Source: an uncultured Actinomycetes bacterium (GTDB lineage: Bacteria; Actinomycetota; Thermoleophilia; Gaiellales; JAICJC01). From it: 64,000 nucleotides of DNA. The notes under the pieces were generated by a model. The model was not told the DNA's origin and did no database searches. It saw nothing but the letters and a program-made list of their open reading frames with translations. Both the position numbers and the translations under genes were made by a program. Where the stretch lies: NCBI GenBank assembly GCA_963732075.1, contig CAVSYD010000003.1, forward strand, positions 906,518 to 970,517. Reading direction: 5' to 3'. The stretch's first letter is position 1, and the number at the start of each line of letters is the position of its first letter. Below, one piece after another: positions 43,432-63,820 of this stretch.

Positions 43432-43469
43432 GATTGAGAGTGTTCCACATCCGCTCGAATCGAGCAAGA

Positions 43470-44331: not shown

Positions 44332-44345
44332 AACGGGGGAAGAAC

Positions 44346-46079
44346 ATGCGCGTGAAACGACACACTGTCCGCCTGACCGCGACCGCGCTCGTCGTGGCCG
44401 CGGCGTATCTCGTGCCGGGGGCGGCGAGCTCCGCCGCCTCGCTGCCCGGCGTGGCGGCGCACATCCCTGCGCCCGTCGTGGTGGGCTCCCCTCGCATCGC
44501 GGGCCGGATGCGGGACGGCGGCACCGTCGTCGCCCGCGGCGCCGCGTGGCACGTGCCGGCTCTCCCCGCCGGCGACCGCCTGCTCAGCTTCGAGGTGGCC
44601 TACGTGTGGACGACCTGCGCGACTTCCGCGAGTTCCTGCCGCCCGGCGGCCGATACCACCGCGACGCCGTTCGCAGCCCGCCGCTACGTCGTCGGGCACG
44701 CCGATACCGGCCGCCTGCTGCGGCTGACCGAGACGGCGACCGAGGTCGTCGAGACCGACCCGGCGACGTTCACCTTCCGGGTGGTGCGCGCGTCGGCGAG
44801 CGCGCTGGCCCGCACGCCGGTGCGGCCGTACGCCGCGGGCCGCGCCCCGCGCAGCGCGTTTATCAACGGCACGCCCGAGCACCGCACCGCGTCCGCCGAG
44901 GAGTACTTCGACGTCTCACCCGCGCACTTCAACACCGCCGACGGCACCCCCGTCGTCCGCTACCGAATTGACGCGCGCCGATGGCGGCTGCTTGCCGCCA
45001 CCCGGCTCGTCTACACCGGCAAGCTCCGGCCAGGCCTGCACCGGGTGGCCGTGCGCACGTCCAACACGGCCGGCACCACCCTGCGGTCGTTCCGGTGGCG
45101 GGTGGTGCCGCTGCCGGCCCCGCTTGCCTGCGTCCCCCGCAAGGGCGGGGCGTGCTGGTATCCGCCCCACCTCGACAGCACCGGCCGGCCGATGCGCTGG
45201 GACTGGCAGATCGGCCGCGTGACGCCGCTCGAGCGCACAGGCGCCCAGGCCGTCGACATCTACGACATCGACGGCTTCCTCACGACCCCGGCCGAGGTCA
45301 AGACGCTGCACACCCAGTGGCCGGGCAGCACCCTCGCCCACCCCAAGGCGGTGTGCTACCTCGACCTGGCCTGGGAGGACTACCGGCCCGATGCCAGCCC
45401 ACCCTTCCGGGGTGGCGGGTTCCCGGTCTCGACGCTCGGCAACGTCTACTACGGCTACTCGCAGGAGCGGTGGCTCGACCTGCGCCAGCTCGATGCCCTC
45501 AAGCCCGTGATCGACGCGCGCCTCCGCATGTGCGCGGCCAAGGGCTTCGACGCGGTCGAGCTCGACGACATCGACAGCTTCGACCCGCCGTCGACGACCG
45601 GCTTCCATCTCACGCCCGGTGACGCCCAGAACTTCCTGAGCTACGCCATGAACGAGGTGCACCGGCTCGGCATGACCGTGATGTGGAAGAACTCCCCCTA
45701 CCTGAGCTGGTGGGGCCGCCGCTACTCCGACGGGGCGATCGTCGAGGAGTGCTACATCTACCACCAGTGCTTCTCATCCCAGGTCGCCGGGAGCACGCAG
45801 TACGGGTTCACGTGCACCAAGGTCACCGGCCCCACCCCGTGCGGGTGGGACGACTTCACGACCGACAGGACGGCCCACCAGCCGAACGGGAAGTGGGTCG
45901 GCGAGGTGGAGTACGCAGAGGACGGCTACGTCTGCGCGCCCGGCGCCTCGTGCCCGCTGCCGCGGAGGTTCTCGACCTACTGCGCGGCGGTCGAGGGCCC
46001 GAGCTACGGGTTCTCCGCCATGCGCCTGGACGTCGACCTGGACGGGCGGCTGTTCCAGACGTGTCCTAGGGGAGGCTGA
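44346..46079 (+). CDS. secreted protein: N-terminal Ig-like region plus glycoside hydrolase family 114 (endo-alpha-1,4-polygalactosaminidase-type) TIM barrel
   Basis: Signal peptide is LTATALVVAAAYLVPGAASSAAS. GH114-like blocks are WDWQIG, DIYDIDGF, AVCYLDLAWEDYRPD, ERWLDLRQ, GFDAVELDDIDSF and MTVMWKNS. The region is intact within ORF 43434..46079. Confidence 0.7.
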   Translation: MRVKRHTVRLTATALVVAAAYLVPGAASSAASLPGVAAHIPAPVVVGSPRIAGRMRDGGTVVARGAAWHVPALPAGDRLLSFEVAYVWTTCATSASSCRPAADTTATPFAARRYVVGHADTGRLLRLTETATEVVETDPATFTFRVVRASASALARTPVRPYAAGRAPRSAFINGTPEHRTASAEEYFDVSPAHFNTADGTPVVRYRIDARRWRLLAATRLVYTGKLRPGLHRVAVRTSNTAGTTLRSFRWRVVPLPAPLACVPRKGGACWYPPHLDSTGRPMRWDWQIGRVTPLERTGAQAVDIYDIDGFLTTPAEVKTLHTQWPGSTLAHPKAVCYLDLAWEDYRPDASPPFRGGGFPVSTLGNVYYGYSQERWLDLRQLDALKPVIDARLRMCAAKGFDAVELDDIDSFDPPSTTGFHLTPGDAQNFLSYAMNEVHRLGMTVMWKNSPYLSWWGRRYSDGAIVEECYIYHQCFSSQVAGSTQYGFTCTKVTGPTPCGWDDFTTDRTAHQPNGKWVGEVEYAEDGYVCAPGASCPLPRRFSTYCAAVEGPSYGFSAMRLDVDLDGRLFQTCPRGG

Positions 46080-46086
46080 CCCGCCG

Positions 46087-46530
46087 TTAGATCAGATCGG
46101 GCCCGAAGCGGGTCAGGCGGAACAGTGCCGTGCGCGGGAGCCCGGCTGGCGGCTTGCGGAACGCGTGCACCCGCAGCCGGGTGTAGCGGAGACCCAGCGG
46201 CGTCTGCACGAGCCGGCGCGCGACGACCCGCACGCGGAAGTGGACGAAGTGGCCGCTCGCGCAGTCCGGAACGCAGGTGTTGGCAAAGCCGACCCCACGC
46301 CCGATCGCGCGCCCGGCGCCCCACCGCAGCCAGTGCAGCTTGGCCACGCCCCAGTTCGCATCGGCGCACGCGAGCACGACCTCGCGCGGCCGGACGCGGT
46401 GCTGCCCCCCGCACAGGATGATGACCGGCCTGGAGGCCGCCGTCGGTGAGGCCGACGCGGTTGCGGCGGCCGCCGCCGTCATGGCGACGACGAGCACGAG
46501 CACATTGCGAACCAGGCGGACGGTGGACAT
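46087..46530 (-). CDS. hypothetical secreted Cys-containing protein
   Basis: Start taken at MSTVRLVRNVLVLVVAMTAAAAATASA. No family recognised. Confidence 0.4.
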   Translation of the reverse strand: MSTVRLVRNVLVLVVAMTAAAAATASASPTAASRPVIILCGGQHRVRPREVVLACADANWGVAKLHWLRWGAGRAIGRGVGFANTCVPDCASGHFVHFRVRVVARRLVQTPLGLRYTRLRVHAFRKPPAGLPRTALFRLTRFGPDLI

Positions 46531-46611
46531 GGCGGTGCCTCCAGCGCGAGTGACGACGGTTCTCAGAGTGTGACGCACGGGTGTAACGGCTGGGTCACGA
46601 GGAGACGACTC

Positions 46612-47511
46612 TCAGGCATCGCCCGAAGGCTCTGGCCACGGGAACACTCTGCCGATCGCCGCTTCAAGAGCCCTGCGGTCATCCTCGAAGAACTCCACGA
46701 GTAGCTCGCGCAGTTCCGGACTCCATGGGGGCTTCTCGCCCGAAGTGAGCAGACCTTCGCGAGCGGCCGTACGCAGCCTGCGTGGGACGGCCGCCCGCGT
46801 GACCGCACGAACCGAGGGGCTGCCCATGACTCGTCCGGCGAGCGACGACCGCGGCCGGGCGTACTCGTTGCTCCGTGGAAGCCCTCCAGCCTCGCTCGGC
46901 GGCGGGACGCCAAGGAACGCTGCCAATCGATCCGCCTCATCGGACTCGGGCGAGATCACCTCCTCGAAGCACGCGACGAAGAAGCGGTCGCCGAACGCCG
47001 CCACGTACTCCTGAACCTGGCCCGCATAGAGGCCGAGCCGCAGATAGGCGTTGAATACCCAGACCGAATCCGGATCCCGCATCTCGGCCGCGACGGCGTC
47101 GCCGAACGCCCGGGCTTCCGTCCCCTCGCGCACATTGTTCAGGTAGTGGGAGTAACCGCGGTCGGCCGGGGCACGCAGGAGCGCCACGACCCGTGCGGCG
47201 GGCGCGAAGGCGCGAATCTTCGCCGCAACCCCAGGTGTGGGTAGATAGGACGTACTGGCGTCGACGCGGAAAGCCGCGGCCGACCCGGGCCCGTAGAGTC
47301 GCCGGTAATCGGCCGGGGATTCAACAGTCCTCAGCGTGCCCCTACCTCCCGGTCCCGCCCCGACCTCGGATAGGTGATGAGGCTCCTTCAACCACGGGAC
47401 GTACCAGCCCGCCTGGCGACCGAGGTACTCGGCCAGCGAGGTGGTCCCCGCCTTCGCCGCACCCACGACGAACACATTGGGCGCACCTGGAAACGGATCC
47501 TCGGCGATCAC
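46612..47511 (-). CDS. sulfotransferase-family protein
   Basis: Intact 299-aa ORF. It has a 5'-PSB-like loop (VFVVGAAKAGTTSLAEYL) and a 3'-PB-like block (RVVALLRAPADRGYSHY). The start overlaps the Wzy-like stop. Confidence 0.75.
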   Translation of the reverse strand: MIAEDPFPGAPNVFVVGAAKAGTTSLAEYLGRQAGWYVPWLKEPHHLSEVGAGPGGRGTLRTVESPADYRRLYGPGSAAAFRVDASTSYLPTPGVAAKIRAFAPAARVVALLRAPADRGYSHYLNNVREGTEARAFGDAVAAEMRDPDSVWVFNAYLRLGLYAGQVQEYVAAFGDRFFVACFEEVISPESDEADRLAAFLGVPPPSEAGGLPRSNEYARPRSSLAGRVMGSPSVRAVTRAAVPRRLRTAAREGLLTSGEKPPWSPELRELLVEFFEDDRRALEAAIGRVFPWPEPSGDA

Positions 47512-48995
47512 TGCAGGTGGACGTTAGATGCGTGAGGCGTCGGTAGCAGCGTGCCCTCCATCGTGGCTTCCTCCGTCGCCTGCGCTGCACGCCGCCGCTG
47601 AAACTCCATCCCGATCAGGAATCCCACCGGCACGAAGAGATACCGGTTGTAGATGTCGTTCTGCACGACTCCTTCAATCAACCAAACCATGAAGGACAGC
47701 GTAAACGCGGAGGCGAGAATCCGTTGCGGCGCATCTATCGGATACGCGCGGCAAAGACGAATTCCGAGCGCAAGGGTGCCGAAGACGAACCAGAGGAACG
47801 CAACCAGGGCTGGAACCCCACCCGCTTGGAGCACCTGCAGATAAATGTCCGTCGCATACCGGACCACCGAGAAGCCGACGCCCGTGAGTGGGTGGGCGAC
47901 CGCGGAGTCCAGTGCCTGTCTGTAGAGGAAGAGACGGGTCGAGTTGGCTCCATTTTCTGCCGAGCTCAGACTGAAGAGGCGATTCACCGCCACCAGATTC
48001 GGGCTGGACGCGCTCGCACCCGCGAGCGCAAGCAACGGCACCAGTGCCGCCACCGCCAGAATCCCCACCCCCACACGGGTGCGCATCGGAGGGCTCACGA
48101 TCGGACATAGAATCACAACGACCACCGCCGCGAGCAGTGCCGCGCGTGAGCCCGAGATCATGATCGCTACCAGTGCGGCAACCAGCACGGAGCCGTAAAA
48201 GACTCGGGACCGCATCGTCTTAGCCAGCACTGTCACCTGGGCAATCGCGTACGGGATCACCATGGCCGCCACGATGCCAAGGTCATTCGGTTGGAGGGTC
48301 AGGCCGGTCTGCCGCCCAACGTACCCTCGGCCCGCGAAGAAGTGCCCGATGCCGGTGTTCAGTGTGTAGTCGAGCAGTGCGACCACGCCGTTGATCAGCA
48401 CGGAGGCCGACCACGCGGCACCTGCGACCGCGAGCCTTGCGGGAGAAGAACTGATCGCACCGACGAGAAGGGGCGTCAGTATGAGAGCCAACGCGAACTC
48501 GAGCGCTTTACCCAGATCGGAACTCACACCACCCACCGGGTCAGCAGTCGCGGCCGTGATCCCGGACGCCAGCAGGAGCACCCCGCTGAACACGAGGTAG
48601 GGCGGGGTGAGCGTGAGCCACCGACGCTCGACGACCGCGGCCATACCGAGGCATGCGGCGCTGAGCACAAAGAGGGCGTCGGCGACCTCCACACCTCCGT
48701 GTATGTGGACGGAGATCAGCGTTACCGCGACGAGACCGGCGAATCCAGAGGCAAGGCCAAACCGAAGCAGCGGAGAGTACGAAACGCAGTCATCCAACCT
48801 CCCGAGCCACGCGGCGAACCACATCAGCAAAAGCAGCCCGGCGAGCGCCGCCAAGCCGATGAGGACCGCTGAACGGGGCAGCGTCGCGGATACCAGGCCA
48901 ACGCCGCCGCCGGCGGCCAGCGCAATCATCAGCAGCCCAACCGACCGGGCCAACTGACCGCCGCGCACGCGAGTCCGGTTTGGAGCATGCACCAC
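47508..48995 (-). CDS. O-antigen polymerase/ligase-like (Wzy_C domain) polytopic membrane protein
   Basis: GTG start lies 3 nt after the upstream GT stop. About 10-12 TM helices, with the Wzy_C-like loop IMISGSRAALLAAVVVVI. The N-terminal 240 aa of ORF 47508..49724 is read-through antisense-frame sequence. Confidence 0.65.
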   Translation of the reverse strand: MVHAPNRTRVRGGQLARSVGLLMIALAAGGGVGLVSATLPRSAVLIGLAALAGLLLLMWFAAWLGRLDDCVSYSPLLRFGLASGFAGLVAVTLISVHIHGGVEVADALFVLSAACLGMAAVVERRWLTLTPPYLVFSGVLLLASGITAATADPVGGVSSDLGKALEFALALILTPLLVGAISSSPARLAVAGAAWSASVLINGVVALLDYTLNTGIGHFFAGRGYVGRQTGLTLQPNDLGIVAAMVIPYAIAQVTVLAKTMRSRVFYGSVLVAALVAIMISGSRAALLAAVVVVILCPIVSPPMRTRVGVGILAVAALVPLLALAGASASSPNLVAVNRLFSLSSAENGANSTRLFLYRQALDSAVAHPLTGVGFSVVRYATDIYLQVLQAGGVPALVAFLWFVFGTLALGIRLCRAYPIDAPQRILASAFTLSFMVWLIEGVVQNDIYNRYLFVPVGFLIGMEFQRRRAAQATEEATMEGTLLPTPHASNVHLQ

Positions 48996-48997
48996 GT

Positions 48998-50308
48998 TTA
49001 TCTCCCGGTGTTCCGAGTGGGGTCGACCTCGTGTGAGACGGGTGTTCGACCGCCGCTCACCGCAAGTGCCTGCTCGATCACCTGGCTGAACGCATCCGCG
49101 ATCCGATCGATATCGAACGTCGATTCGGCATAGGCCCGGCCGGCCGACCCCATTGCCTGGAGTTGGTTGCGGTCGCCTATGAGGGCTCCGGCGGTCTCGA
49201 GGAATGCAGGGCCGTCGTGCGGATCCACGACAACTCCGGATCCCGCCCGCTGGATGATCCGAGCTGCGAGATTCTCGGACGGGATCGCCCCAAGAATGGC
49301 GCGCCCCGCACAGTGGTAGCTGAGCACTTTCGAGGGCACCGAGTACTGCCCCGCATCGCTTTGCAGGATCGCAACCAGCACGTCGGCGCTGGCAAGCACG
49401 TCGGGGAGTTCGCTGTAGGGCTGGTAGGGCAGGAGAATCAGATTGTCCAGCCCATGCGCACGAGACTGTCCGGCGAGCCAGTTCGCGCCGCGGCCCTCCG
49501 AAACCACGACCACTCGCACATCCGGGTGTGCACGCATCGAGATCGCGAGGTCGCGGATCAACGCTGGATCGTGCTTCACCCCGAGCGTGCCGGCATAGAC
49601 GAAGTTCCGGGTCTGGGCCAGCCGATGGGCACGAGACCACGCGTTGTCGTGCGGCCGGAGCGGCGTCTCCGAGAGAGGGGCCCAATTCTCGATCACAGTG
49701 ATCCGCTCTGACGACACTGACCACGCCGCGAGTTGCGGCAGAAAATCCTCGGATATCGGGACGACCGCGGAGCTCTGGCGAAGGGAGGTCGCCTCAACTC
49801 GGCTGAGGACGAAGCCGGCGATCGCACTCACCGTGCGGGGCCGGCCTCGCGCGAGCGTGAGCTTCGTCCCGACGCTCCAGACATCCTGCTGCCAGAAGAT
49901 GAACGCACGCGGGAGTCTGGTCTTCCTCACCAGCAACCACTGACTCAGCAGCGGCGTGTTGCCCGACATCAGTACTTCCGTATTCTCGGCGGTCGCAATC
50001 TCGGACACGATTCGCGCGTACTGAACTTCATAGACCGCACGCTTGATCACCGAGTACTTGTTGAACGGCCGGCCGAGGTCGATCCCCTGGATGCGGAGCG
50101 TCGCCGGGTCATCGGCCGTGACCTCGATTCGGCCCTTTCCCTTGAGATCCGAGGCGCAATGGAGGTGAAGGACGTCGAAGCCCCTCTCGGCCAGGCGCCG
50201 GCTCAGCTGAATCTGAAAGGCGTGTCCGGCGAAGTCATGAACGACGATCCGGGTGCCCGTGGCGCTCGCGGTTCCGGTCCGCGCGCTGTCCGCGGTGATG
50301 TCACCCAC
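48998..50308 (-). CDS. glycosyltransferase family 4 (WcaI-like)
   Basis: Intact 436-aa ORF. N-terminus is IVVHDFAGHAFQIQLSRRLAERG. The C-terminal GT-B block is YSVPSKVLSYHCAGRAILG. Confidence 0.8.
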   Translation of the reverse strand: MGDITADSARTGTASATGTRIVVHDFAGHAFQIQLSRRLAERGFDVLHLHCASDLKGKGRIEVTADDPATLRIQGIDLGRPFNKYSVIKRAVYEVQYARIVSEIATAENTEVLMSGNTPLLSQWLLVRKTRLPRAFIFWQQDVWSVGTKLTLARGRPRTVSAIAGFVLSRVEATSLRQSSAVVPISEDFLPQLAAWSVSSERITVIENWAPLSETPLRPHDNAWSRAHRLAQTRNFVYAGTLGVKHDPALIRDLAISMRAHPDVRVVVVSEGRGANWLAGQSRAHGLDNLILLPYQPYSELPDVLASADVLVAILQSDAGQYSVPSKVLSYHCAGRAILGAIPSENLAARIIQRAGSGVVVDPHDGPAFLETAGALIGDRNQLQAMGSAGRAYAESTFDIDRIADAFSQVIEQALAVSGGRTPVSHEVDPTRNTGR

Positions 50309-50335
50309 CGGGCGTCTCCCGCTTCACCGCGCACG

Positions 50336-51970
50336 TCACGTAGGCCGAGGGGTTGTCGAACCTTGTTGGGTTGACCCTGTGCCGTTGGCCTCGACGGCAG
50401 CCACTCCATTCACAGATGCGCGCTCCGGGCCAGGGCTATAGCCATAGCTGCCATAGCCGTACCCGTCGCTTCCAGCGCCGACCCCGGCGAGCACGTACCC
50501 CAGCACCGGGCTACCGAGCGTGCAGAGGACGCGGTGAAGCTCCTGCAACGTGTCGCGCTCGGTGTTCTTGAGGTGGACGACCGGAATCACCCCACCTACA
50601 AGACGGCTCAGCGCGACCGAATCGACCACCGGGAGAAGCGGCGCGGAGTCGATGACGACAACGTCGGCTCGTGTGGAGAGTTCGCTCAGCAGATTACGCA
50701 GGCGGTCGCTCTCCATGAGTTCCGCGGGGTTCGGCGGCATCCCCCCAGCGGGGAGGAGGGTGAGCGTGCCCTGCGAGCCGCCCGGGGAACCGGGAATCGG
50801 GACGGGCACCAGGACGTCGTCGAGTGACACCGACCCGATCATCACGTCGGTGGCGCCTGGCGCGATCGGCACCTTGAAGAACGTGGACACGAACGGCCTT
50901 CGCAGGTCGAGGTCAAGCAGGATGACGCGTCTCTCGCTCAAGGCCAATGCGTAGGCGAGGTTGGCGCTGGTTGTCGACTTCCCCTCCTGCTCAACGGCGC
51001 TCGTCACCATCACGGTTCTCGCGTTAGCCTTGAGGTTGCTGAAGTCGAATCCGACCCTGAGCTTGCGATACGGTTCGGACTCGACGGCATCCCCATCGAT
51101 CATTGCGATGGTGTTGCCCGATCGAAGGGCCTTGGACGGGGCGGGGATTCGCGCGAGGAGCGGGATGCCGAGGGTGCGGCCAATCTCGCTCGTGGAGCGA
51201 ACCCGGGTGTCCAATGCCTCGCGGAGGAACGCTGCGATAACGCCGATGACGCACCCCAGAACGAAGCCCAGCAGCAGATTCTGGGGAACGTTCGGCTGTA
51301 CCTGATGCGCACCCGTTGCGGACGTCGAGACGGTGGTACCCGGATTGCTCTCCTGGGTCGCGATCAGGCTTTGGAGATTCGTGATCTTTCCAACCAGCTT
51401 GTTCAGCTGGGCGTTCACCGTTGACACCGACTGTCCGGCATTGTGGAGCTTGACGGCCTGCGCCTCGAGCCCGGCCTTCTCGTTCTGAAGCTTTCGAAGT
51501 GTGTTCGTCAGCCCGGCGGTGCCCACGGCGGTTTCGTATTTGACGAACGCCGCTGCGTACGCGTTGACGAGCGCCTCGGCGACCGCGGGTGACTTGCTTC
51601 GTACCGAGAATGTGAGGATGTTGTTGGTGGTGCTGGGCGTGATTGTCGTGACCCGTAGCGCGGTCACGCTGTCGACGCCCGGCAGGTGCGCGGCGGTCGC
51701 GGCGAGCGCCGCGACGGTGTCCGTATGGGCTACCTCGGCGAGATTCGCGACGATGCGCGCCTGCACATCGTTCGACTGCTGAGCGCCTGCGAGCTGCCCG
51801 ACCGAGGTGCTGACCAGCACCTGGGAGGACGCCTCGTAGACCTTGTGCTCACGAGTCGAGACGGCGAATGAGGCCGCGACGGACGCCAGAAGCACGACCA
51901 AGACGATCCACTTCCGCCGCCGGATGACCGCTAGATAATCGACCAGCGTCGCGTACCGCGGTGAACTCAT
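50336..51970 (-). CDS. polysaccharide co-polymerase / BY-kinase (Wzc-like: Wzz domain + CpsD-type tyrosine autokinase)
   Basis: - Two TM helices flank a coiled-coil periplasmic-type domain.
- Walker A-like block: SAVEQEGKSTTSANLA.
- Further kinase blocks: LLDLDLRRP and VVIDSAPLL.
- C-terminal Tyr cluster: DGYGYGSYGYS. Confidence 0.85.
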   Translation of the reverse strand: MSSPRYATLVDYLAVIRRRKWIVLVVLLASVAASFAVSTREHKVYEASSQVLVSTSVGQLAGAQQSNDVQARIVANLAEVAHTDTVAALAATAAHLPGVDSVTALRVTTITPSTTNNILTFSVRSKSPAVAEALVNAYAAAFVKYETAVGTAGLTNTLRKLQNEKAGLEAQAVKLHNAGQSVSTVNAQLNKLVGKITNLQSLIATQESNPGTTVSTSATGAHQVQPNVPQNLLLGFVLGCVIGVIAAFLREALDTRVRSTSEIGRTLGIPLLARIPAPSKALRSGNTIAMIDGDAVESEPYRKLRVGFDFSNLKANARTVMVTSAVEQEGKSTTSANLAYALALSERRVILLDLDLRRPFVSTFFKVPIAPGATDVMIGSVSLDDVLVPVPIPGSPGGSQGTLTLLPAGGMPPNPAELMESDRLRNLLSELSTRADVVVIDSAPLLPVVDSVALSRLVGGVIPVVHLKNTERDTLQELHRVLCTLGSPVLGYVLAGVGAGSDGYGYGSYGYSPGPERASVNGVAAVEANGTGSTQQGSTTPRPT

Positions 51971-52088
51971 CAGATATGCCTCTCTTGCCGTCTGGGACGA
52001 GTGCGCGGAGCGATTACCCCCAGGATGTTCCAGTGATACGTGCATGCGCGAGCATCGTCAAGGGCTGAAGAGCACGGCGGGTTTTTGC

Positions 52089-53975
52089 TCAGCGCGATCC
52101 TTCCCTTTCTGCGCGGCGTACCAGCCGGGAGTAGAGACGCAGTTCGCGCGACAGAGGGTTCAGAGTGGCGGCGGCGGTAAGAGCCCGTCCCTCGAGTCGC
52201 CCTTCAGAGGCCTGCGCAAGCCCGAACTGGAGCTTCCACTCGGCAGGGTCAACAGCCAACCCCCGTCGGAAAGCGTCACGAGCGTCCGCCTTGTGGCCCA
52301 TCCCGAGCGCCGCATAGCCCGCTGCGATCCACGGGTCGTATGACCATGGCATCCATCGGCGGGCCGATCTGGCCTCACTCGCCGCATTCGCCCAGTGACC
52401 CGCGTTGACATCGTGCTCGGCTGCTTCGAGGTGCTCCGCACCGATAGCGCCCATCGTGAGCGCCAGCGTTGCGGCGACGAGGAGCGCGCTCGCGATGAGC
52501 GTCACCGGCGCGCTTGTCTTCAGATCTCGTTGCTCGGCGCCGCGGTTCGCTACCACCAGACAGGCGGCCATCCCGACGCCGAGCAGTCCCACCGCCGGCA
52601 GTTGCCAATCCCAGTCGACGCCGGTGTGCACGACGAACATTGCAAACGCCGCAAGGCACGCCGGCACGAAAGGGCGCCTGCGCGCTGCGATCCCTTGTGC
52701 CCCCGCGAATCCGAACGCGAGGAGCAGGAGCGCCAGTCCCACAACCCCCGTCTCGGCGGCGGTTTCAAGATATGCGGAGTGCGCGAAGTCGCCCTCGAGT
52801 CCCGTGGTGCGGTGCAAGAGCCAGACTCTCGCGAATCCTCCGGCTCCGATGCCAACCACGGGGTGTGACGCAAACTCAGATGCTGCTAGTCGCCAGAGTT
52901 CAGGTCGGGCTTCGAGTGTGGTCGCCAGCAGCCTTCCCGGCTTTCCCGGCGCGCTGCCGGCGCCGCTTGCCGATAGCGTGAGCAGACAGATCGCACCGAC
53001 AGTTGCCATTGCGGCGACCGCGACGACCACTCGTCGCAAGACTTGGTCGGATCCACGCCATGAACGCGAGATCACCAGCGCGAACGGATTGAGGCAGAAA
53101 CGGATCAGAATCACAGCGAACGCGCACCCGAAGACCAGCGCGACCGACACGACGATCGCGGCGTGATGTGACCGCGAGTCGAGGGTGGTCGCGGTCAGAT
53201 GAGGATCCAGGATCGCTGCAACGACCGGAACCATCGCCGCCAGGGCACACAGCACAGCCGCCACGAGCACGCGGACACATTTGCGGTGTGCCACCGCGGC
53301 GACCGCCACGCCCAGAACCGTCACGGCGATCCCGCCTCGGCTCAGAGTGAGATACAACGCCAGTCCGAGAACGGGGGCGCTCGCGGCCGCGGCGATGCGC
53401 ACGCCGGGCCTCGACCCATCCAAAATGATGCCGATTGCGAGAATCAGTCCGATCCCCGCGATCATCGCCAGCCCGTTCCAATACCCGACGGGGGCGAAAA
53501 GGCGACCGGCGACCCCTGCCGTCTGGGCATATGAGCTGCCGGGTAGGAGGCGCACCCCAACTCCGAACGCTGCCACCGCCACGCAGCCCACCCAGGCCGC
53601 GCCAGCAAGGAACGCGACGGAGCGCCCTCTCGATCCGGCGATGACTGCCAGAGAGAGCAGTCCGTAGGTGCCGACACGGGCGGAATCCGGCACAGTCGCC
53701 GTCGCATCGGCCGACCACGAGAGTGAGGCGAACCCCCAGGCGGAGAGCCCTAGGAGCGCGAGCGGCAAAATGAGTGGACGGCCCCGCAAGCGCGCGGGGG
53801 CCTGCACGACGCCCCCGACCGAAACCACCGCGAGCGCAGCGCCGGCTAGCTCGTACGTGCTCGGCGCAACGCCTCCATTCTGGAAGGCGAGCAGAATGAA
53901 GCCTACGCCAAGTGCCGCTGGAAGCAGCAAATCTCGGTGGTATATCGAGAAAGATCTGCTGTATCGCGGTACCAT
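52089..53975 (-). CDS. O-antigen ligase-family (Wzy_C) membrane protein with C-terminal TPR-like domain
   Basis: Intact 628-aa polytopic ORF. Blocks are YLTLSRGGIAVTVLG and AHSAYLETAAETGVVG. The soluble tail carries TPR-like repeats (GYAALGMGHKADARDAFRRGLAVDP). Confidence 0.7.
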   Translation of the reverse strand: MVPRYSRSFSIYHRDLLLPAALGVGFILLAFQNGGVAPSTYELAGAALAVVSVGGVVQAPARLRGRPLILPLALLGLSAWGFASLSWSADATATVPDSARVGTYGLLSLAVIAGSRGRSVAFLAGAAWVGCVAVAAFGVGVRLLPGSSYAQTAGVAGRLFAPVGYWNGLAMIAGIGLILAIGIILDGSRPGVRIAAAASAPVLGLALYLTLSRGGIAVTVLGVAVAAVAHRKCVRVLVAAVLCALAAMVPVVAAILDPHLTATTLDSRSHHAAIVVSVALVFGCAFAVILIRFCLNPFALVISRSWRGSDQVLRRVVVAVAAMATVGAICLLTLSASGAGSAPGKPGRLLATTLEARPELWRLAASEFASHPVVGIGAGGFARVWLLHRTTGLEGDFAHSAYLETAAETGVVGLALLLLAFGFAGAQGIAARRRPFVPACLAAFAMFVVHTGVDWDWQLPAVGLLGVGMAACLVVANRGAEQRDLKTSAPVTLIASALLVAATLALTMGAIGAEHLEAAEHDVNAGHWANAASEARSARRWMPWSYDPWIAAGYAALGMGHKADARDAFRRGLAVDPAEWKLQFGLAQASEGRLEGRALTAAATLNPLSRELRLYSRLVRRAEREGSR

Positions 53976-54271
53976 TCAACCATGAAGGCTAGCCGACCTG
54001 GCAAACTCCGGAGTCTCCACGAACTCCGCGGGGTGATTGCGGCCATGGCGTTGCTTGCCGGCCTACTCGCCCTCGTTGCGGTCTCGGGCTCGCTTTCCGT
54101 TGTGCGTCCGACGCACCTGATTGCCACTCCAACCGACCTGGTGTCGCCAACATCAGCGTGGCCGACTCAACAACAGTCGCTCGTGATCCGCCGGGCCTGC
54201 CTCGGTCGCCCTCACACGGAGCCCGATTGGTGTCCGGCTACCAGGCGGCCGAGCGGACGGTGAGTGTCGCA

Positions 54272-55057
54272 ATGGCCCGGGGTCGGCGGCTCCGGTGGCG
54301 TGCGAGTTCCCACCTCGCACACAGCCATCTGTTCCTGGCGGCGAACCGCCTTGATCGCAATCGCGCAGTCGTCGATAGGCGGACAGAACTCGTCATCGAG
54401 GGCTTCCCTCGGTCGGCCAACACCTTCGCGGCCGTCGCGTTTCAGGTGGCGCAGCCGCGACCGATTCGGCTCGCCCACCACCTCCACGCACAGAGTCAGG
54501 TCACGTGGGCGCTCAAGGCGGGCATACCAACGTTGGTGGTCATCCGGGAGCCGTCCGAGGCAGCAGCGTCCGTCGTCACTCGGTCCCCCTATCTGACCCT
54601 CTCAGATGTGCTGGGCGGATACGCGCGCTTCTACGAGTCCCTCATGCCCCACCGTGACGCGTGCGTGATCGGACGATTCGACCTTGTGACGACTGACTTC
54701 GGCGGCGTGATCCGCGATCTCAACGCTCGCGCCGGCACACACTTCGAGCCCTTTGAACACAACGAGGCGAATGCCGCCGCGGTCTACGGGCTGATCGATC
54801 TGCGGACGAGCCAGCCGACCCTGGCGGGAGCCGTCGACCGCTTCACCTCCGGCGCGATTAGCCTACAGGACCTCGACGCGCTTCGGCGTGAGGCCGGCCC
54901 AAGCGCTTCCCCCGTCCCCGAGCACAGAGTTGCGCGACCATCCGCTCTGCGGGCTGACAAGCTTGGCGCTTTGGCAGAGCGGATTCGAAGCCGCGAGCTC
55001 GCACCCCAGTATGGTCGGGCCGAGGCCGCGTTCAGTGCGTTCGCCGGCCTGTCGTAG
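54272..55057 (+). CDS. hypothetical protein, possibly sulfotransferase-like
   Basis: This is the only plus-strand gene inside the glycan locus. Its loop ELVIEGFPRSANTF resembles a PAPS 5'-phosphosulfate-binding loop. The assignment is weak and the start is uncertain (ORF 54158..55057). Confidence 0.35.
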   Translation: MARGRRLRWRASSHLAHSHLFLAANRLDRNRAVVDRRTELVIEGFPRSANTFAAVAFQVAQPRPIRLAHHLHAQSQVTWALKAGIPTLVVIREPSEAAASVVTRSPYLTLSDVLGGYARFYESLMPHRDACVIGRFDLVTTDFGGVIRDLNARAGTHFEPFEHNEANAAAVYGLIDLRTSQPTLAGAVDRFTSGAISLQDLDALRREAGPSASPVPEHRVARPSALRADKLGALAERIRSRELAPQYGRAEAAFSAFAGLS

Positions 55058-55084
55058 GAGTCCAGGCAACCGCCTTCGGCGGCG

Positions 55085-56608
55085 CTACTCCGCGCCGGAG
55101 GATCCGGCGTAGGCGGCACGCCCAATCTGCCCTCGCTGGGGCAGTGCCCCGGCGATAGCCAAGCCAGCCACGAGGACAAGTCCGGCGACGGCCGAAACCA
55201 CGACGATCTCGGCGGCGGGGGTGTAGCTGGACGTCAGGATGGCCATTATGCCCGCGGTAACCCCGAAGGCCACCATCACCAAGGACACCTTCCCGGTTGC
55301 ACGGTCGAACGGTTGGATGCGGAGGTTCTTCCACACCTGCAGAAGGCGCAGTCCGTTGCTCAGGACCACGGCCAAGGCCCACGCTGCCCCCGCACCCACC
55401 ATTCCGTATTCCGGAATCAGAACGATGTTCAACGCGACGTTCACGACGACCACGAGTGCATTGATCCGGAAGGTCACGTCCGCACGGCCGATCATGGTGA
55501 TGACGTATCCACACGGCCCCGTGGCCGCATTGACCAACTGGGCAGCGGCAAGCATGGCGAGTGGGACTGCCGCCCGCGCATAGCTTTGTCCGTAGAAGAG
55601 CGTCAGGATCGGGGATGCGAGCAGGGCCACCAGGAGCAGAGGTGGAACGCCGAAGATGACGGCCAACCGGGTCGCGAAGGAGTACATCTTCCCGAGCTGG
55701 GCGATGTCCCCGGTCGTGTGCAAACGGCCGATCACCGGTTGGAAGGCAATGGCTACAGGCAGAACGAAGACCAGGCCGAGGGCGACCGTCCGGGTGGCGA
55801 CCGAATAGGCCGCGACGTCTTGGGGTGGACGCCAAAGACCGAGGAGCAGTGTGTCTGCCCAGAGAGTGCCCGCACCCGCAAGGACCGTCCCCCACTGAAA
55901 TGCCGAGAAGCGTACCAACGCACGCTTGTCGAGTGCCGCCGAGGTGGCATCCGCGGTGAGGAAACGCCGGGTGACGAACGCCGCTGCGCAGAGCGTGACC
56001 ACGCTCGTCGCGGTCGACGCCAGTGCAGCCCCTGCCGCACTCGCGCCCATGAGCAGGACGAGCCACACAAGTCCGAGACGGAGTGTCCCATCCAGTATCT
56101 GATCGACGTAGACATACGATCGCATCCGCCCGGTGCCACGGCTCGCTCCGATCAGCACAGATTCGACCACAATGAACGGCAGGCCGACCGCCATCACCCG
56201 CAACACGTCAGCCAGAGCAGGAGCACCGAACCATCCCGCGACCCACTGTGCTCCGAGTATCGTCGCGATCGCGACTGCCGTCGATGCCAGACCCGAGAGC
56301 TTCACCGAATATCGGATCGAGGACGCGGCCGCCGCGCGATCGCCGGCGGCGAGATGCATGGCTACGTAACGGACCGCCGTTACATCCAGACCCAGGGTGG
56401 CGACCACCGAAAGCAACTTGATCGCGGCGAATCCTTCGAAGAACACACCCGCTTGCCTCTGAGGCAGCCAGTGAGCGAGCGCGAGCACGAGGCAAAACTG
56501 TGTCAGGCTCGAAACGCCGAGGCCGGCGAAGTTGAACATGGATCTGTGGGCGAGAACGCGCTTCTCCGCCGCCAGTTCAGCGGGTGCGGCGCTACCAGGA
56601 CTGGTCAT
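55085..56608 (-). CDS. Wzx-type oligosaccharide flippase (MOP/polysaccharide biosynthesis protein family)
   Basis: Start taken at MTSPGSAAP. About 12-14 TM helices. The N-terminus FNFAGLGVSSLTQFCLVLALAHWL is typical of this family. The start overlaps the upstream sulfotransferase stop by 17 nt. Confidence 0.75.
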   Translation of the reverse strand: MTSPGSAAPAELAAEKRVLAHRSMFNFAGLGVSSLTQFCLVLALAHWLPQRQAGVFFEGFAAIKLLSVVATLGLDVTAVRYVAMHLAAGDRAAAASSIRYSVKLSGLASTAVAIATILGAQWVAGWFGAPALADVLRVMAVGLPFIVVESVLIGASRGTGRMRSYVYVDQILDGTLRLGLVWLVLLMGASAAGAALASTATSVVTLCAAAFVTRRFLTADATSAALDKRALVRFSAFQWGTVLAGAGTLWADTLLLGLWRPPQDVAAYSVATRTVALGLVFVLPVAIAFQPVIGRLHTTGDIAQLGKMYSFATRLAVIFGVPPLLLVALLASPILTLFYGQSYARAAVPLAMLAAAQLVNAATGPCGYVITMIGRADVTFRINALVVVVNVALNIVLIPEYGMVGAGAAWALAVVLSNGLRLLQVWKNLRIQPFDRATGKVSLVMVAFGVTAGIMAILTSSYTPAAEIVVVSAVAGLVLVAGLAIAGALPQRGQIGRAAYAGSSGAE

Positions 56609-57467
56609 GTTCGTATCCCATGTCGACAAGCAGTTGACCGCCAAGGCGTTTGAAAAGGTCGGTGAGTGCCGGGGTGAAGTAGTCGCGCCAGCCGCCCGAT
56701 ACGCCGCGTCGGAAGGTTGTGCTCGATGGTGTCCAAACCGCATCGGCGACGCGTTCCGCGCCGGCTCGGTCGAGCGGTCGATCCACGAATGCTGCAATCT
56801 GGGAGACGGTGTCGATCTGGATCTCCCGGTCGCCTCCACCCCTCACTCCGATCAGGTCCTCGAAGCGCACAACCCTGACGCCGGGGGCCGCCCCCCACGG
56901 CAGAAACGCTCCCACCCGCTGGTCAAGTGACAGCAACTCGGGGGAATCTTCTGTCGCGGGCAATCCCGTGATCGACGCGCGGATTCTATCCTCATCCGAG
57001 CCGAGCGCGCGGAAGCGCTGATGGAGATGGTGTTCCTTGAGCTTGCTGGCGTAGAACGCGAAGGACACCGCGACGTCCCGAGGGTCGCGGACAAGGAGCA
57101 TCATGCGGAATTCGAGATCGCCGAAGGCCGACTCGAAGCCGGGCCACGCGGGGATGTGGGCGGTCGCGTACTGCCCGTTTCTGACGCGGTCCATGTGGGC
57201 CCGAGCGATGCGCAAAGCGTCTGCGGACTCGTCCGCCGTGAGCGGGGCCCCGCTCACGTGATGCAGCGTCTCCGGCTGGACGTGCACGCCAGCGTATGCC
57301 ATTTTGGGCAGCCGCGAGAGGACGCCCACCGCGAGGTGCGTGCCGGCCTTGGGTACGCTGTTCACGATGACCCGAGGAGCGGGTCGCCACCTGACCACCG
57401 ACCCCATCCATGTGGCGTACGCCACCCTGGACACAGAACGCGTCGTGACCCTCATGCCGCCGATCAA
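56592..57467 (-). CDS. sulfotransferase-domain protein (Sulfotransfer_1-like)
   Basis: Intact 291-aa ORF. Blocks are VNSVPKAGTHL (5'-PSB), LLVRDPRDVAVSFAFY (3'-PB) and FRRGVSGGWRDYFT. The start overlaps the GT4 stop (ATGA). Confidence 0.8.
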   Translation of the reverse strand: MIGGMRVTTRSVSRVAYATWMGSVVRWRPAPRVIVNSVPKAGTHLAVGVLSRLPKMAYAGVHVQPETLHHVSGAPLTADESADALRIARAHMDRVRNGQYATAHIPAWPGFESAFGDLEFRMMLLVRDPRDVAVSFAFYASKLKEHHLHQRFRALGSDEDRIRASITGLPATEDSPELLSLDQRVGAFLPWGAAPGVRVVRFEDLIGVRGGGDREIQIDTVSQIAAFVDRPLDRAGAERVADAVWTPSSTTFRRGVSGGWRDYFTPALTDLFKRLGGQLLVDMGYEHDQSW

Positions 57468-58672
57468 GCCGCGGATCCTCTGGCCGGTTTGCGCCGTTGG
57501 GTGGCATCGCTGCCTCGTTGCATTGCTTCAGCGTACACCGACTCGATTTGGTCGACATGATGACCCAGCGAGAGTTCGTTGGCGGTGCTCCCCCACCCGG
57601 CCGCGGAGAGGGTTGCCCATGTATCGTCGTCGTCGAGTAGCAGTCGGGTTGCCGCCACCATGCTCCGCAAGTCGGGCAAGACCAGCCGACCGCCACCCGC
57701 CACCCGCACATAATCGGCCAGTCCGCCCACATCGAACGCAACCACCGGTGTGCCGACTGCGAAGGCCTCAAGGGCGACCAACCCCGCGGGCTCGGGCCAC
57801 ACCGAAGGGATCACCGTGGCCACCGCTCGTGACAAGACTTCCTTCACTGTCTCCGGAGCAACCCACCCGTAGACCTCCAGGTTCGGCACCGACCGGGCTT
57901 CGGAGTCGAGCCATCCACGCAACTCACCATCGCCGAAGACGCTCACCCGGACATCGGGCAGAGCCCGTGCGAGGTCGGGAAGCACCCGCGCGCCCTTCGC
58001 CTCCGTGAGTCGCCCGACAAAGACGATCCCACCCCGCTCCTCACGGGGGGGCGCGGCTTGCTGGGTGACTCCGTGCCGGACGACCTCAGCGTCGATCCCA
58101 AAGCCCGAGTACGTGCCGGCGATCGCAGCGGAGATCGCGATCCATGAATCGACTCGTGGAATGTGGGCATGACGCTTCACCTGAAAGAGCGCCGTGTTAA
58201 GAGCCCGAAAGGCGACGTCGCTGTCGAGGCGATCGACGGCGCCGCCTGACGCATCCGTCGGGCTCGCCGACACAAATTCATAGTCATGAATGGTTTGCAC
58301 GACGGGAATGTGTCTCCTTCCGGCCATCACGGCGGGCGCGACGGAGAGCTGGGGGTAGAGCTTGTTCAGATGTACGATGTCCGGTCGAAATGATGCGCAC
58401 AAAACGGAGAGCGAGCGAGCGGCCGAGCGGTTCCAAAACGCCTCGCACACCACTCGAGCCCTGGTGTCGAACGCAAGGTTGCCACGCGTGGCGTGACTGA
58501 CCCGCAGCGGGATGAACTGGCCAGATGTCTCGAGGTTCTCTGCGTGGTCGGTCGACAGCCACTGAACATCATGACCGCGGCTTCTCAGGCCGCGGGTGAG
58601 TTCAAGGCAGTATCGATCGGCGCCGCCGGTCACGCGTGCGAACTTATTGACGATCAGGATGCGCATGTACAA
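57464..58672 (-). CDS. glycosyltransferase family 4 (GT-B, group 1)
   Basis: Intact 402-aa ORF. N-terminus is RILIVNKFARVTGGADRY. The C-terminal block is PSVWPEPAGLVALEAFAVGTPVVAFDVGGL. Confidence 0.85.
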   Translation of the reverse strand: MYMRILIVNKFARVTGGADRYCLELTRGLRSRGHDVQWLSTDHAENLETSGQFIPLRVSHATRGNLAFDTRARVVCEAFWNRSAARSLSVLCASFRPDIVHLNKLYPQLSVAPAVMAGRRHIPVVQTIHDYEFVSASPTDASGGAVDRLDSDVAFRALNTALFQVKRHAHIPRVDSWIAISAAIAGTYSGFGIDAEVVRHGVTQQAAPPREERGGIVFVGRLTEAKGARVLPDLARALPDVRVSVFGDGELRGWLDSEARSVPNLEVYGWVAPETVKEVLSRAVATVIPSVWPEPAGLVALEAFAVGTPVVAFDVGGLADYVRVAGGGRLVLPDLRSMVAATRLLLDDDDTWATLSAAGWGSTANELSLGHHVDQIESVYAEAMQRGSDATQRRKPARGSAA

Positions 58673-58779
58673 CCGGCAAATCGATCGGGGCCGCCGCAGA
58701 TGTGCACCCTCTCAAGGGTTAGTCGCCGACACATTGATCCTGCCCACGTTGTCGAGTCCGCCTGAACTCCGTCGGCTCA

Positions 58780-59793
58780 TCAAGTAGAACCGCCATTCCT
58801 GCAACCGTCAAGGCTCGGCTCACGGGCGCTTGCATCACCGACCAGCCGCCGAGATGTCGACCGGAGCGCGGAGAGAACTGATGGTGTCGAGAGGCGGAAG
58901 TCGAACCCCGCCGGGGAAACTGCGTCGTTATACACCCACGCTCGAATCCTGGGATGCTGCTCGATCCACCGCGCTGCGGAGACCAGCCACCAGCGCTGGC
59001 GCATCGCGTCGCCGGGATCGATCGTGGATCCGCTCTCCGACACCATAAGCCGCTTGTGCGTCGTCACTCCCCACGTGTAGAACGGCGTGAAGATCTGCCG
59101 AAACCCATCCCACCTCGTATCCGGGTATCGGTTGTACCCGTCTGCGGCGACCCATTGCACATAGCGGCCTCCAGGGTAGAACGTCTGTGCTCTGCCGGTG
59201 GCGAATCCTGCGGCGGTGGCAGACCACACAAACTGCGCGTTGGTTGCGTGCTCCGCATGAAAGATCCCGACAATCCTACGCCAGGCGAGTTTGAACTCGT
59301 GCGGCGTCCCGATGTAGTGGCTGCCCGGCACGCCGAGCTTCTGGTTCATCTCGAAGCCGAACCGGATAAAAACCGGCTTGTGCAGCGACCTCACGCCGAG
59401 TGCCACCGACCGGATCACGCCATCCTCGAGTCCGCTGGCGATCGCACGCGCGGTTGTAGTGCCGACCGCCGACCATGAGATCATGGGTATACGGCCCGCC
59501 TCGACATCCTTTCGCTCCTCAACCAGTGGAATCCGATCCCAGGCGCGGTAGTGCGGGTCTATCGAAAGTGTGCATCCAAGCCGTCGATCCAAATTCTCGA
59601 AAAAGGCGAGTTGGCCACCGCCGTTCGGGGCCGGCACCCACGCACCCATCAGGATGCCCGAACCGAAACGCGGTAGTGGAGCCGTGACCGGACTTTGGCT
59701 CGAGCCACACGCGGTGACGGAGCCGATCATCGCTGTCGTGTAGATGAGGATGAAGCACCTTCGCCCGTGTGACAGCGCCGCCGGACGATGCAC
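58780..59793 (-). CDS. glycoside hydrolase family 26-like lipoprotein
   Basis: Start chosen at a GTG that gives VHRPAALSHGRRCFILIYTTAMIGSVTAC (lipobox). It has an acid/base-like block (VFIRFGFEMNQ) and a nucleophile-like block (RLMVSESGS). The upstream part of ORF 58780..60132 is read-through. Confidence 0.5.
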   Translation of the reverse strand: MHRPAALSHGRRCFILIYTTAMIGSVTACGSSQSPVTAPLPRFGSGILMGAWVPAPNGGGQLAFFENLDRRLGCTLSIDPHYRAWDRIPLVEERKDVEAGRIPMISWSAVGTTTARAIASGLEDGVIRSVALGVRSLHKPVFIRFGFEMNQKLGVPGSHYIGTPHEFKLAWRRIVGIFHAEHATNAQFVWSATAAGFATGRAQTFYPGGRYVQWVAADGYNRYPDTRWDGFRQIFTPFYTWGVTTHKRLMVSESGSTIDPGDAMRQRWWLVSAARWIEQHPRIRAWVYNDAVSPAGFDFRLSTPSVLSALRSTSRRLVGDASAREPSLDGCRNGGST

Positions 59794-59852
59794 GGCCGCC
59801 AACAACTTCCCGGCGGAGCGTCGAGACCATCTCTCCTCCTCGAATGCGGCGG

Positions 59853-63677: not shown

Positions 63678-63781
63678 CCGCCGAGCCCCCTACCGAGATG
63701 GACATGCCTACAACACTCAAATAGAGAGTGCCACCTCGTTCGGAACGTGTCAAGCTGCGGATCCAAATTCTCCCTGACGAA

Positions 63782-63820
63782 ACAACGGGGAGGCCCGCAA
63801 GCGTGGGGCCTCCCCGTTGT
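63782..63820 (-). terminator. strong hairpin (14-15 bp stem) downstream of the partial minus-strand gene and upstream of the PPTase operon
   Basis: ACAACGGGGAGGCC (63782-63795) pairs with GGCCTCCCCGTTGT (63807-63820). It starts 19 nt after the stop codon at 63839-63841. Confidence 0.6.

Follow-up and report, generated by a model that had tools for sequence, protein, structure and literature searches.

A candidate locus for a sulfated surface polysaccharide, and a divergent sulfotransferase-like family, in uncultured Actinomycetota

The question raised by this locus is whether an uncultured soil member of the Actinomycetota encodes the assembly of a sulfated surface glycan. Sulfated polysaccharides have been portrayed in the literature as rare in bacteria outside cyanobacteria, and bacteria were not treated in a review of polysaccharide sulfotransferases. 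We analysed 64,000 nucleotides of the uncultured Actinomycetes assembly GCA_963732075.1 (contig CAVSYD010000003.1, positions 906,518 to 970,517), hereafter called the window, whose coordinates are used throughout unless a locus of a relative (L followed by a number) is named. An original prediction, made from these letters alone, had proposed a candidate locus for a sulfated surface polysaccharide at 46612-58672, with two clear sulfotransferases and a third, weaker one. Profile matches, motifs and the conservation of the cluster support this as the best reading, with sulfation itself as a predicted step. We hold with moderate confidence that the genes would direct the assembly, by the Wzx/Wzy route, of a sulfated heteropolysaccharide of the cell surface or the extracellular space.

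Two sulfotransferases in a Wzx/Wzy cluster

By their sequences, the two clear candidates, named ST1 and ST2, are members of the 3'-phosphoadenosine 5'-phosphosulfate (PAPS) sulfotransferase families. ST1 contains VVGAAKAGTTSL and LLRAPADRGYSHY, with the motifs AAKAGTTS, KEPHH and RAPADRGYS. It exceeded the Pfam cut-offs for both PF13469 Sulfotransfer_3 (34.0 bits, cut-off 27) and Sulfotransfer_1 (22.2 bits, cut-off 22) and matched the sulfotransferase 3rnl of the PDB over its full length (residues 10-296, E 2e-31). Weaker PDB matches were to heparan-sulfate 3-O- and N-sulfotransferases (3-OST and NDST, E 3e-4 to 2e-3). ST2 contains PKAGTHL, TAHIP, RDPRDVAVSF and RRGVSGGWRDYF and matched PF00685 Sulfotransfer_1 with 41.9 bits (cut-off 22, E 1e-10). 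The motif set of that family was found in it, namely the PKxGT loop, the catalytic His, R-x7-S and the C-terminal RxGxxGxW(K/R)xxF, and it aligned in register with human SULT2A1 at the His, at RxPxDxxxS and at RKGxxGDWK. A total of 742 ST2 homologues were found, and residues K40, H104, R127 and S135 were invariant in 37 of them. Both proteins thus share with the PF00685/PF13469 enzymes the 5'-phosphosulfate-binding loop, the catalytic His or Glu/His region and the R-x7-S of the 3'-phosphate-binding site. The PAPS loops quoted in the original prediction are present exactly as given, and the profile check that it called for assigned both proteins to PAPS-sulfotransferase families and not to other families of P-loop proteins.

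The two genes lie among those of an export and polymerisation apparatus, since Wzx, Wzy, a polysaccharide co-polymerase (PCP) of the Wzc type and glycosyltransferases, which characterise the Wzx/Wzy pathway, occur together in one cluster. The first of two Wzy_C proteins, WzyA, matched Pfam Wzy_C with 51 bits, has at least 10 hydrophobic segments and is 82% identical in the related locus L006. The second, WzyTPR, matched Wzy_C with 39 bits and showed weak TPR matches in its tail. Wzx matched Pfam Polysacc_synt (59 bits) and MatE (53 bits) and has about 12 transmembrane segments. Wzc combines a Pfam Wzz domain with a P-loop domain, matched TIGR01007 with 127.5 bits (cut-off 108) and carries a Walker A motif (EQEGKST), a C-terminal Tyr cluster (GYGYGSYGY) and two transmembrane segments. 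Of the two family 4 glycosyltransferases (GT4), GT4a matched Pfam Glyco_trans_4_4 and Glycos_transf_1 and the NCBIfam WcaI family (E 9.5e-30, under its cut-off), and GT4b matched Glycos_transf_1 (76.5 bits) and Glyco_transf_4 (64 bits). A GH26-like hydrolase matched Pfam GH26 (21.5 bits, cut-off 20.2) and the GH26 domain of Clostridium thermocellum CelH in the PDB (E 2e-13); from its N-terminal IGSVTAC followed by GSS, it is possibly a secreted lipoprotein. All of these assignments, which the original prediction had made, were therefore borne out by profile or PDB matches.

Two further genes follow on the right. The product of the first matched TIGR01217 (548.6 bits, cut-off 520.9), PDB 4wd1 (E 4e-113) and EntF PCP-TE, with Pfam AMP-binding, PP-binding and Thioesterase domains, and consists of an acetoacetate-CoA-ligase-type domain, a carrier and an EntF-like thioesterase. 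Given the type of its adenylating domain, its identification as an amino-acid nonribosomal peptide synthetase module was rejected. The second is a phosphopantetheinyl transferase (Pfam ACPS 68.9 bits; HetI-like in NCBIfam) that is 65% identical in L006. Together they may serve acylation of the glycan or form a separate small pathway.

To delimit the cluster, relatives were compared. In L006 (MFD10113.bin.2.41, "uncultured Actinomycetes bacterium"), which came from a scan with one genome per species, the same order was found from ST1 to the phosphopantetheinyl transferase, with 59-84% amino acid identity; the counterpart of the right-hand end, from the adenylating gene onwards, lies at 15424-19252. 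The three sulfotransferase genes are intact in both genomes and 75-83% identical, with ST1 at 75%. Part of the order was retained in two other relatives, GH26-GT4-ST2-Wzx in L005 (a JGI contig) and Wzc-GT4-cand3-ST2-Wzx in L010 (a contig of a Gaiellales metagenome-assembled genome, MAG), where cand3 is the third sulfotransferase candidate. The comparative search that the original prediction recommended thus recovered the whole order once and parts of it twice, and the genes, Wzx/Wzy/Wzc machinery included, form one cluster that is conserved in three or more further genomes or contigs (L006, L005 and L010). Since the genes to the left of ST1 (the small secreted protein at 46087-46530, GH114 and sugar-utilisation genes) are missing in L006, we take ST1 as the left boundary, and GH114 was rejected as a member on the same ground. 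The cluster extends over 46612-59856 at least and probably to 63677. The interval first proposed therefore holds the sulfotransferase, Wzx, Wzy and Wzc genes, but it stops short of the GH26 gene that had been counted in it, and the cluster runs further.

The gene map is given in Table 1. Genes were called from codon-position G+C bias, in agreement with the calls on an identical public 6.7-kb Logan contig, where the call for Wzx is the same. The open reading frames (ORFs) at 47508-49724 and 55085-56839 are too long at their 5' ends; their likely starts are 48995, which comes after GGGAGA and the GT4a stop codon, and 56608. Among the named cluster genes, only cand3 lies on the plus strand, divergent from WzyTPR and convergent with Wzx. 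Overlaps were found at four of the nine same-strand junctions (ST1/WzyA, ST2/GT4b and GH26/adenylating gene, 4 nt each, the last between the stop codon of the adenylating gene and the start of its neighbour's; Wzx/ST2, 17 nt), so the original claim that most junctions overlap was too strong; one of the others is a 2-nt gap and the rest are gaps of about 27-107 nt. The 93-aa ORF in the divergent gap has one hydrophobic or transmembrane segment, and its frame, this segment and the position of its stop codon are kept in L006 (about 9730-10010). Its differences from L006 by codon position (25/21/38) show a mild third-position excess, which is weak evidence for a gene. A scan of 46-64 kb for promoter and terminator consensus sequences returned nothing above the shuffled expectation.

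Table 1. Genes of the cluster, with window coordinates and assignments
Gene	Position	Strand	Assignment
ST1	46612-47511	-	Sulfotransfer_3-type PAPS sulfotransferase, 299 aa
WzyA	47508-48995	-	polytopic Wzy_C membrane protein (O-antigen polymerase/ligase-type), ~495 aa
GT4a	48998-50308	-	WcaI-like GT4 glycosyltransferase
Wzc	50336-52045	-	polysaccharide co-polymerase/bacterial tyrosine autokinase, fused form
WzyTPR	52089-53975	-	second Wzy_C membrane protein, C-terminal TPR tail; polymerase or ligase
93-aa ORF	53982-54263	+	possible small membrane protein; divergent gap, overlaps cand3 start
cand3	54230-55057	+	third sulfotransferase candidate, 275 aa; family without Pfam/NCBIfam match
Wzx	55085-56608	-	MOP superfamily flippase, 507 aa
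ST2	56592-57467	-	Sulfotransfer_1-type PAPS sulfotransferase, 291 aa
GT4b	57464-58672	-	GT4 glycosyltransferase
GH26-like	58780-59856	-	glycoside hydrolase (Pfam GH26, PDB CelH)
Adenylating gene	59853-62714	-	adenylating/carrier/thioesterase fusion, 953 aa (TIGR01217, PDB 4wd1, EntF PCP-TE)
Phosphopantetheinyl transferase	62913-63677	-	Sfp/HetI-type (Pfam ACPS)

Some features of the surroundings were also observed. The G+C content of the window is about 70%; it decreases across the cluster at about 46000-64000, being 63-67% from about 46 kb to the window end, compared with about 70-76% upstream. Lowered G+C is a frequent trait of variable surface-polysaccharide loci. Adjoining the cluster on the left are a GH114 gene (endo-alpha-1,4-polygalactosaminidase family; 44346-46079, plus strand) and a small secreted Cys-containing protein (46087-46530, minus strand). 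An "881-aa" ORF at 43434-46079 (plus strand) was rejected as a single gene and corresponds to an aldolase-like gene and the GH114 gene. A GH4 hydrolase gene (42135-43431, minus strand) is spread over two frames, and the adenylating gene of L006 (15424-18890) is broken into three ORFs. These breaks in the window (42135-43431 and 43434-46079) and in L006 look like indel errors of long-read assembly or pseudogenes.

The third candidate and its family

The third candidate had been described as weak. We found it to be a real, conserved gene with sulfotransferase-like features, called from 54230, with the start given earlier, 54272, as an alternative ATG. In the family alignment, the motifs FPRSANTF (ELVIEGFPRSANTF), the analogue of the 5'-phosphosulfate loop, AHHLHAPAQ and LIRxPxDAxxS were recognised. 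Residues R61, T65, H83/H84/H86, R106 and S114 vary little or not at all across the family, and the spacing R106-x7-S114 is the canonical one. An AlphaFold2 model of cand3 reached a predicted local distance difference test (pLDDT) score of 93, and in a Foldseek search of the PDB with this model all 50 of the 50 listed matches were PAPS sulfotransferases, including cytosolic SULTs, tyrosylprotein sulfotransferases and heparan-sulfate 3-O-sulfotransferase. Profile-profile alignment with hhalign linked the family to Sulfotransfer_3-like proteins of its neighbourhoods (70% probability, E 3.9e-5) and to the ST2 family (E 1e-3); the His and R-x7-S were in register with the latter. Among 43 family members scanned with Pfam, Sulfotransfer_1 was the only recurring family, weakly and in four (best E 0.0023), and hidden Markov models (HMMs) built from the ST1 and ST2 families also weakly detected cand3 members. 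Compared with Sulfotransfer_1 and Sulfotransfer_3 enzymes (3rnl, SULT2A1, heparan-sulfate 3-OST), the order of the motifs and the predicted fold appear to be kept. In cand3, the loop (PRSANTF) has Arg and Ala where the known enzymes have Lys and Gly. The protein also has an HHLH triad and, unlike the solved sulfotransferases, an N-terminal helix and a C-terminal helical region, and it is too divergent for any curated model.

The family is large. A first search returned 557 clusters at 90% identity, and among 1.84 billion representatives 3,737 were found at E<=1e-3 and 3,125 at E<=1e-10. Two genes to each side of the cand3 homologues in 35 genomes, the Pfam families counted were His_Phos_1 (23), GT4 (12), ATP-sulfurylase with PUA_2 (10), adenosine 5'-phosphosulfate (APS) kinase (7) and Wzz (6). 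The sulfurylase and kinase proved to be a single bifunctional PAPS synthase (NF004040, 838 bits, cut-off 669), which was present in 16 cand3-homologue loci of relatives, in most of them directly beside the cand3 homologue. In nine PAPS-synthase loci, the 25 families that the Pfam scan listed included no Sulfotransfer family, and HMMs of ST1 and ST2 gave zero matches in all PAPS-synthase loci, where no other recognisable sulfotransferase was found. In addition, natural fusions join the cand3 domain to a GT4, to a Wzc-type kinase and to a Sulfotransfer_3-like domain (examples are P0251, P0252 and P0261; L059 8597-10678, L068 8747-10822 and L021 4631-7150).

Three classes of context were distinguished. 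Class A comprises the window, L006 and Gaiellales-like MAGs, with the order Wzy_C, cand3 and then Wzc-GT4-Wzy_C; its relatives carry WecG and an epimerase after the core and often one to five further sulfotransferase genes, and WzyTPR homologues adjoin the third-sulfotransferase gene (cluster 12). In class B, cand3 is accompanied by a histidine phosphatase, a beta-propeller protein and a GGDEF protein. Class C includes the cultured Kribbella antiqua (L034) and Pedococcus ginsenosidimutans (L051), many MAGs of Nocardioidaceae and Streptosporangiaceae, and Dormibacterota (further loci are L069, L035, L055, L056, L076 and others). Its first part encodes a GFO/IDH/MocA oxidoreductase, a DegT aminotransferase and a hexapeptide acyltransferase, as in a WbpB/E/D-like amino-sugar pathway, together with a small Bac_transf initiator and two MurJ-like flippases. 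Next in the order are a Wzc-like protein, a histidine phosphatase, a GT4, cand3, PAPS synthase and a polysaccharide deacetylase. Class C is thus a self-sufficient version with its own initiator and PAPS supply, whereas the class-A cluster of the window has neither. From its gene content, the class C cluster is a candidate locus for a sulfated envelope glycan.

Several side observations concern these loci. No gene neighbours the family more often than that for His_Phos_1 (CobC/PspA-like), seen in 38 loci (for example, L028 9189-9950); it often lies in the Wzc-GT4 interval or directly upstream of the cand3 homologue (L017-L081 and others); its product might remove the 3'-phosphate of 3'-phosphoadenosine 5'-phosphate (PAP). 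Four to six sulfotransferase-like genes (ST1-type, ST2-type and cand3 paralogues) stand consecutively beside Wzx in L021, L022, L039 and L064, and three tandem cand3 copies occur in L065, L067 and L079. A Gly-rich secreted protein of about 100 aa is encoded between the Wzy_C gene and cand3 in L001 (9668-9973), L003 (1852-2175) and L012 (9478-9801). Its C-terminus, LPFTG with a hydrophobic and basic tail, resembles a sortase-type anchor, and it could be a substrate of glycosylation.

The alternative to be weighed here is that the cluster has only two sulfotransferases, cand3 being a protein of the sulfotransferase or P-loop fold that binds a nucleotide, regulates or transfers another group. The points that speak for it also speak against an active third enzyme. 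The window protein has no match in Pfam, NCBIfam or, by sequence, the PDB (a sole PDB "hit", to a ribosomal protein at E 0.08, was discarded as noise), and so falls outside every curated sulfotransferase profile of these collections. Its Foldseek matches are weak (E 1e-3 to 6e-2, template-modelling scores of 0.3-0.4), the hhalign comparison with the ST2 family reached a probability of only 20%, the most frequent neighbour of the family is a histidine phosphatase, and each line of homology evidence is weak if taken singly. The canonical motif order and R-x7-S spacing are kept family-wide, however, and the unanimous fold matches, the alignment to Sulfotransfer_3-like proteins and, in 16 loci, a dedicated PAPS synthase where no other recognisable sulfotransferase is encoded are not what this alternative would lead one to expect. 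We judge it improbable. The motifs, the fold, the profile-profile alignment and above all the gene neighbourhood support an upgrade of cand3 from its former "weak" standing, and on these grounds, together with sequence bridges and fusions, we are fairly confident that it is an active sulfotransferase. For the broader proposal, that the family is a large PAPS-sulfotransferase family at the core of envelope-glycan clusters across Actinomycetota and also in Dormibacterota and Chloroflexota, often accompanied by PAPS synthase and the histidine phosphatase, we see about an even chance.

A proposed pathway and its alternatives

While the families, motifs, gene order and conservation described above were observed directly, the steps proposed here follow from them by analogy with the known Wzx/Wzy pathway and with the model for synechan (PMC8205485). 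A phosphoglycosyl transferase encoded elsewhere in the genome would prime undecaprenyl phosphate, and the two GT4 enzymes would lengthen a short repeat unit at the cytoplasmic face; because there are only two GT4 genes, this unit is probably a trisaccharide. ST1, ST2 and cand3, which are soluble and belong to three families, would then place sulfate from cytoplasmic PAPS on different hydroxyls of the lipid-linked unit. Action in the cytoplasm fits the three proteins because transmembrane or hydrophobic segments were predicted in none of them. Wzx would move the sulfated unit across the membrane, one Wzy_C protein would polymerise it, and the Wzc tyrosine autokinase would set chain length and output. 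The TPR-tailed Wzy_C would polymerise as well or would ligate the chain to an acceptor, and GH26 would trim or free the polymer outside the cell. The adenylating/carrier/thioesterase protein and the phosphopantetheinyl transferase could add a short acyl group. Overlaps of 4-17 nt join ST1 to WzyA, GH26 to the adenylating gene, and ST2 to its two neighbours, GT4b and Wzx, and support the coupling of these functions.

Several points tell against this pathway. To our knowledge, ester sulfate has been chemically shown in no actinobacterial polysaccharide, and we found nothing relevant in the literature on sulfated actinobacterial cell-wall polymers or Kribbella glycopolymers. No PAPS-synthesis gene (sat, cysC or cysDN), initiating phosphoglycosyl transferase (WbaP/PglC or WecA type) or sugar-nucleotide gene was found among the scanned ORFs of the window, a scan that covered small ORFs in part, or among those of the 20.7-kb locus of L006. 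Searches of the window by tblastn with a Bac_transf initiator, PAPS synthase, WecG and epimerase gave no match either, so the absences noted in the original prediction hold for every ORF scanned. The initiator may be encoded elsewhere in the genome; initiators outside the cluster are common among Wzx/Wzy clusters. A distant ST2 homologue, P0016 (40% identical; L004), lies in a non-polysaccharide context and was left out as support; the ST2 family is therefore not limited to glycans. With two Wzy_C proteins, the glycan may stay free or may be ligated to another molecule. Finally, for the most similar published cluster discussed below, wps-1, the product is predicted as a sulfated exopolysaccharide and the paper states that verification is pending (PMC13390465).

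These points bear on three alternatives. First, the sulfated glycan could be part of a glycoconjugate, with one Wzy_C protein acting as a WaaL/PglL-type ligase or an O-oligosaccharyltransferase that joins a short or polymerised glycan to a protein or cell-wall acceptor. The core module retains two distinct Wzy_C proteins next to each other, WzyA weakly matched the O-oligosaccharyltransferase TfpM (E 2e-4), WzyTPR weakly matched a putative O-glycosylation ligase, and the LPFTG-type protein of L001, L003 and L012 could be an acceptor for such an enzyme. That protein is not in the window, however, and the ligase matches are far under the family cut-offs, while a full Wzc co-polymerase/tyrosine kinase together with GH26 is typical of the export of a high-molecular-weight polymer. 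We therefore regard the glycoconjugate as unlikely.

Second, the acceptor of the sulfotransferases might be something other than a glycan, such as an acyl or lipid product of the adenylating/carrier/thioesterase enzyme, and the polysaccharide would then be neutral. This enzyme and its phosphopantetheinyl transferase are conserved at the cluster end and coupled to GH26, and some members of the ST2 family lie outside glycan loci. It is with WzyA, GT4b and Wzx, however, that the ST1 and ST2 genes overlap, the cand3 domain is fused elsewhere to GT4 and Wzc, and many related loci that bear sulfotransferases are without carrier-protein genes, so that we give this explanation very little weight. Third, the cluster might be present and sulfation absent, either because no PAPS is made, as with APS-reductase-type assimilation without an APS kinase, or because the genes are silent. 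The lack of sat, cysC and cysDN in the scanned ORFs of both loci would agree with this. The retention of three intact sulfotransferase genes at the identities given above in two genomes argues for selection on them, and other Actinomycetota have PAPS synthase beside their cand3 homologues; we thus consider unsulfated output very unlikely. The assembly of a sulfated heteropolysaccharide by the Wzx/Wzy route remains the reading that we prefer.

Known systems and what the locus means

The most similar system found is wps-1 of Actinoplanes missouriensis (WpsA-K; Appl Environ Microbiol 2026, PMC13390465), which encodes Wzx, Wzy, a Wzz/Wzc-like protein, GT2, GT26, GH26 and two sulfotransferases of different families, and for which the genetic data are sporangium defects. 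The window shares with it an actinomycete-type Wzx/Wzy cluster with Wzx, a Wzy_C-type Wzy, a Wzz/Wzc-like protein and GH26, as well as two sulfotransferases of different families, one of which is heparan-sulfate-like in wps-1, as is ST1. As in the window, no priming transferase is mentioned for the wps-1 cluster in that paper. The two differ, in a comparison made by description and not by sequence, in that wps-1 has GT2, GT26, a methyltransferase, a kinase-like protein and a DUF4262 protein, whereas both glycosyltransferases of the window are GT4s, and it has in addition a second Wzy_C protein, a third sulfotransferase from a family without annotation, and the adenylating/carrier/thioesterase protein with its phosphopantetheinyl transferase. 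The host of the window is, in addition, uncultured.

In Synechocystis PCC 6803, the xss cluster for synechan (eLife 2021, PMC8205485) comprises Wzx/Wzy/PCP genes, eight glycosyltransferases and two sulfotransferases that belong to distinct subfamilies; its product is chemically supported as sulfated, and the model places sulfation within repeat-unit assembly. The window resembles it in joining Wzx/Wzy/PCP, several glycosyltransferases and at least two sulfotransferases of different families in one cluster. The hosts differ in phylum and envelope type, and the XssQ/R/S regulators, the outer-membrane OPX partner of a diderm and the set of eight glycosyltransferases were not seen in the window. 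Pfam scans of 46.6-63.7 kb showed no regulator, and no search aimed at XssQ homologues was made. The marine Vibrio sp. KMM 8419 and Cobetia marina KMM 1449 are reported to make sulfated capsular polysaccharides of determined structure, and their clusters, like that of the window, are surface-polysaccharide clusters that contain sulfotransferase genes; they are set apart by Gram-negative marine hosts and other export contexts.

The architecture is thus already known from a prediction in Actinoplanes and a demonstration in Synechocystis, to which the window adds a richer example. What is new in it, compared with these clusters, is the third sulfotransferase of an unannotated family, the two Wzy_C proteins, the restriction to GT4 glycosyltransferases and the acyl-adenylating/phosphopantetheinyl pair. 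The original argument from rarity was overstated in view of wps-1 (PMC13390465), of the sulfated capsules reported from Vibrio and Cobetia, and of sulfotransferase-rich polysaccharide loci in many MAGs of soil Actinomycetota.

Together with the related loci, the cluster suggests that Wzx/Wzy clusters carrying several sulfotransferase genes are common among uncultured Actinomycetota of soil. Sulfated polysaccharides are prized as biomaterials. Taken alone, the window is a modest gain; the finding is of interest mainly for a sulfotransferase family that has no annotation and is linked to PAPS synthesis in Actinomycetota that can be grown. Because some carriers can be cultured (Kribbella antiqua VKM Ac-2541 and Pedococcus ginsenosidimutans JCM 18961), the production of such glycans in the envelope of Gram-positive soil bacteria, with sulfate as a predicted constituent, can be tested directly. 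If the reading of the cand3 family is true, sulfated cell-surface glycans would be widespread and overlooked in Gram-positive soil bacteria, including cultured Kribbella, Pedococcus and Nocardioides.

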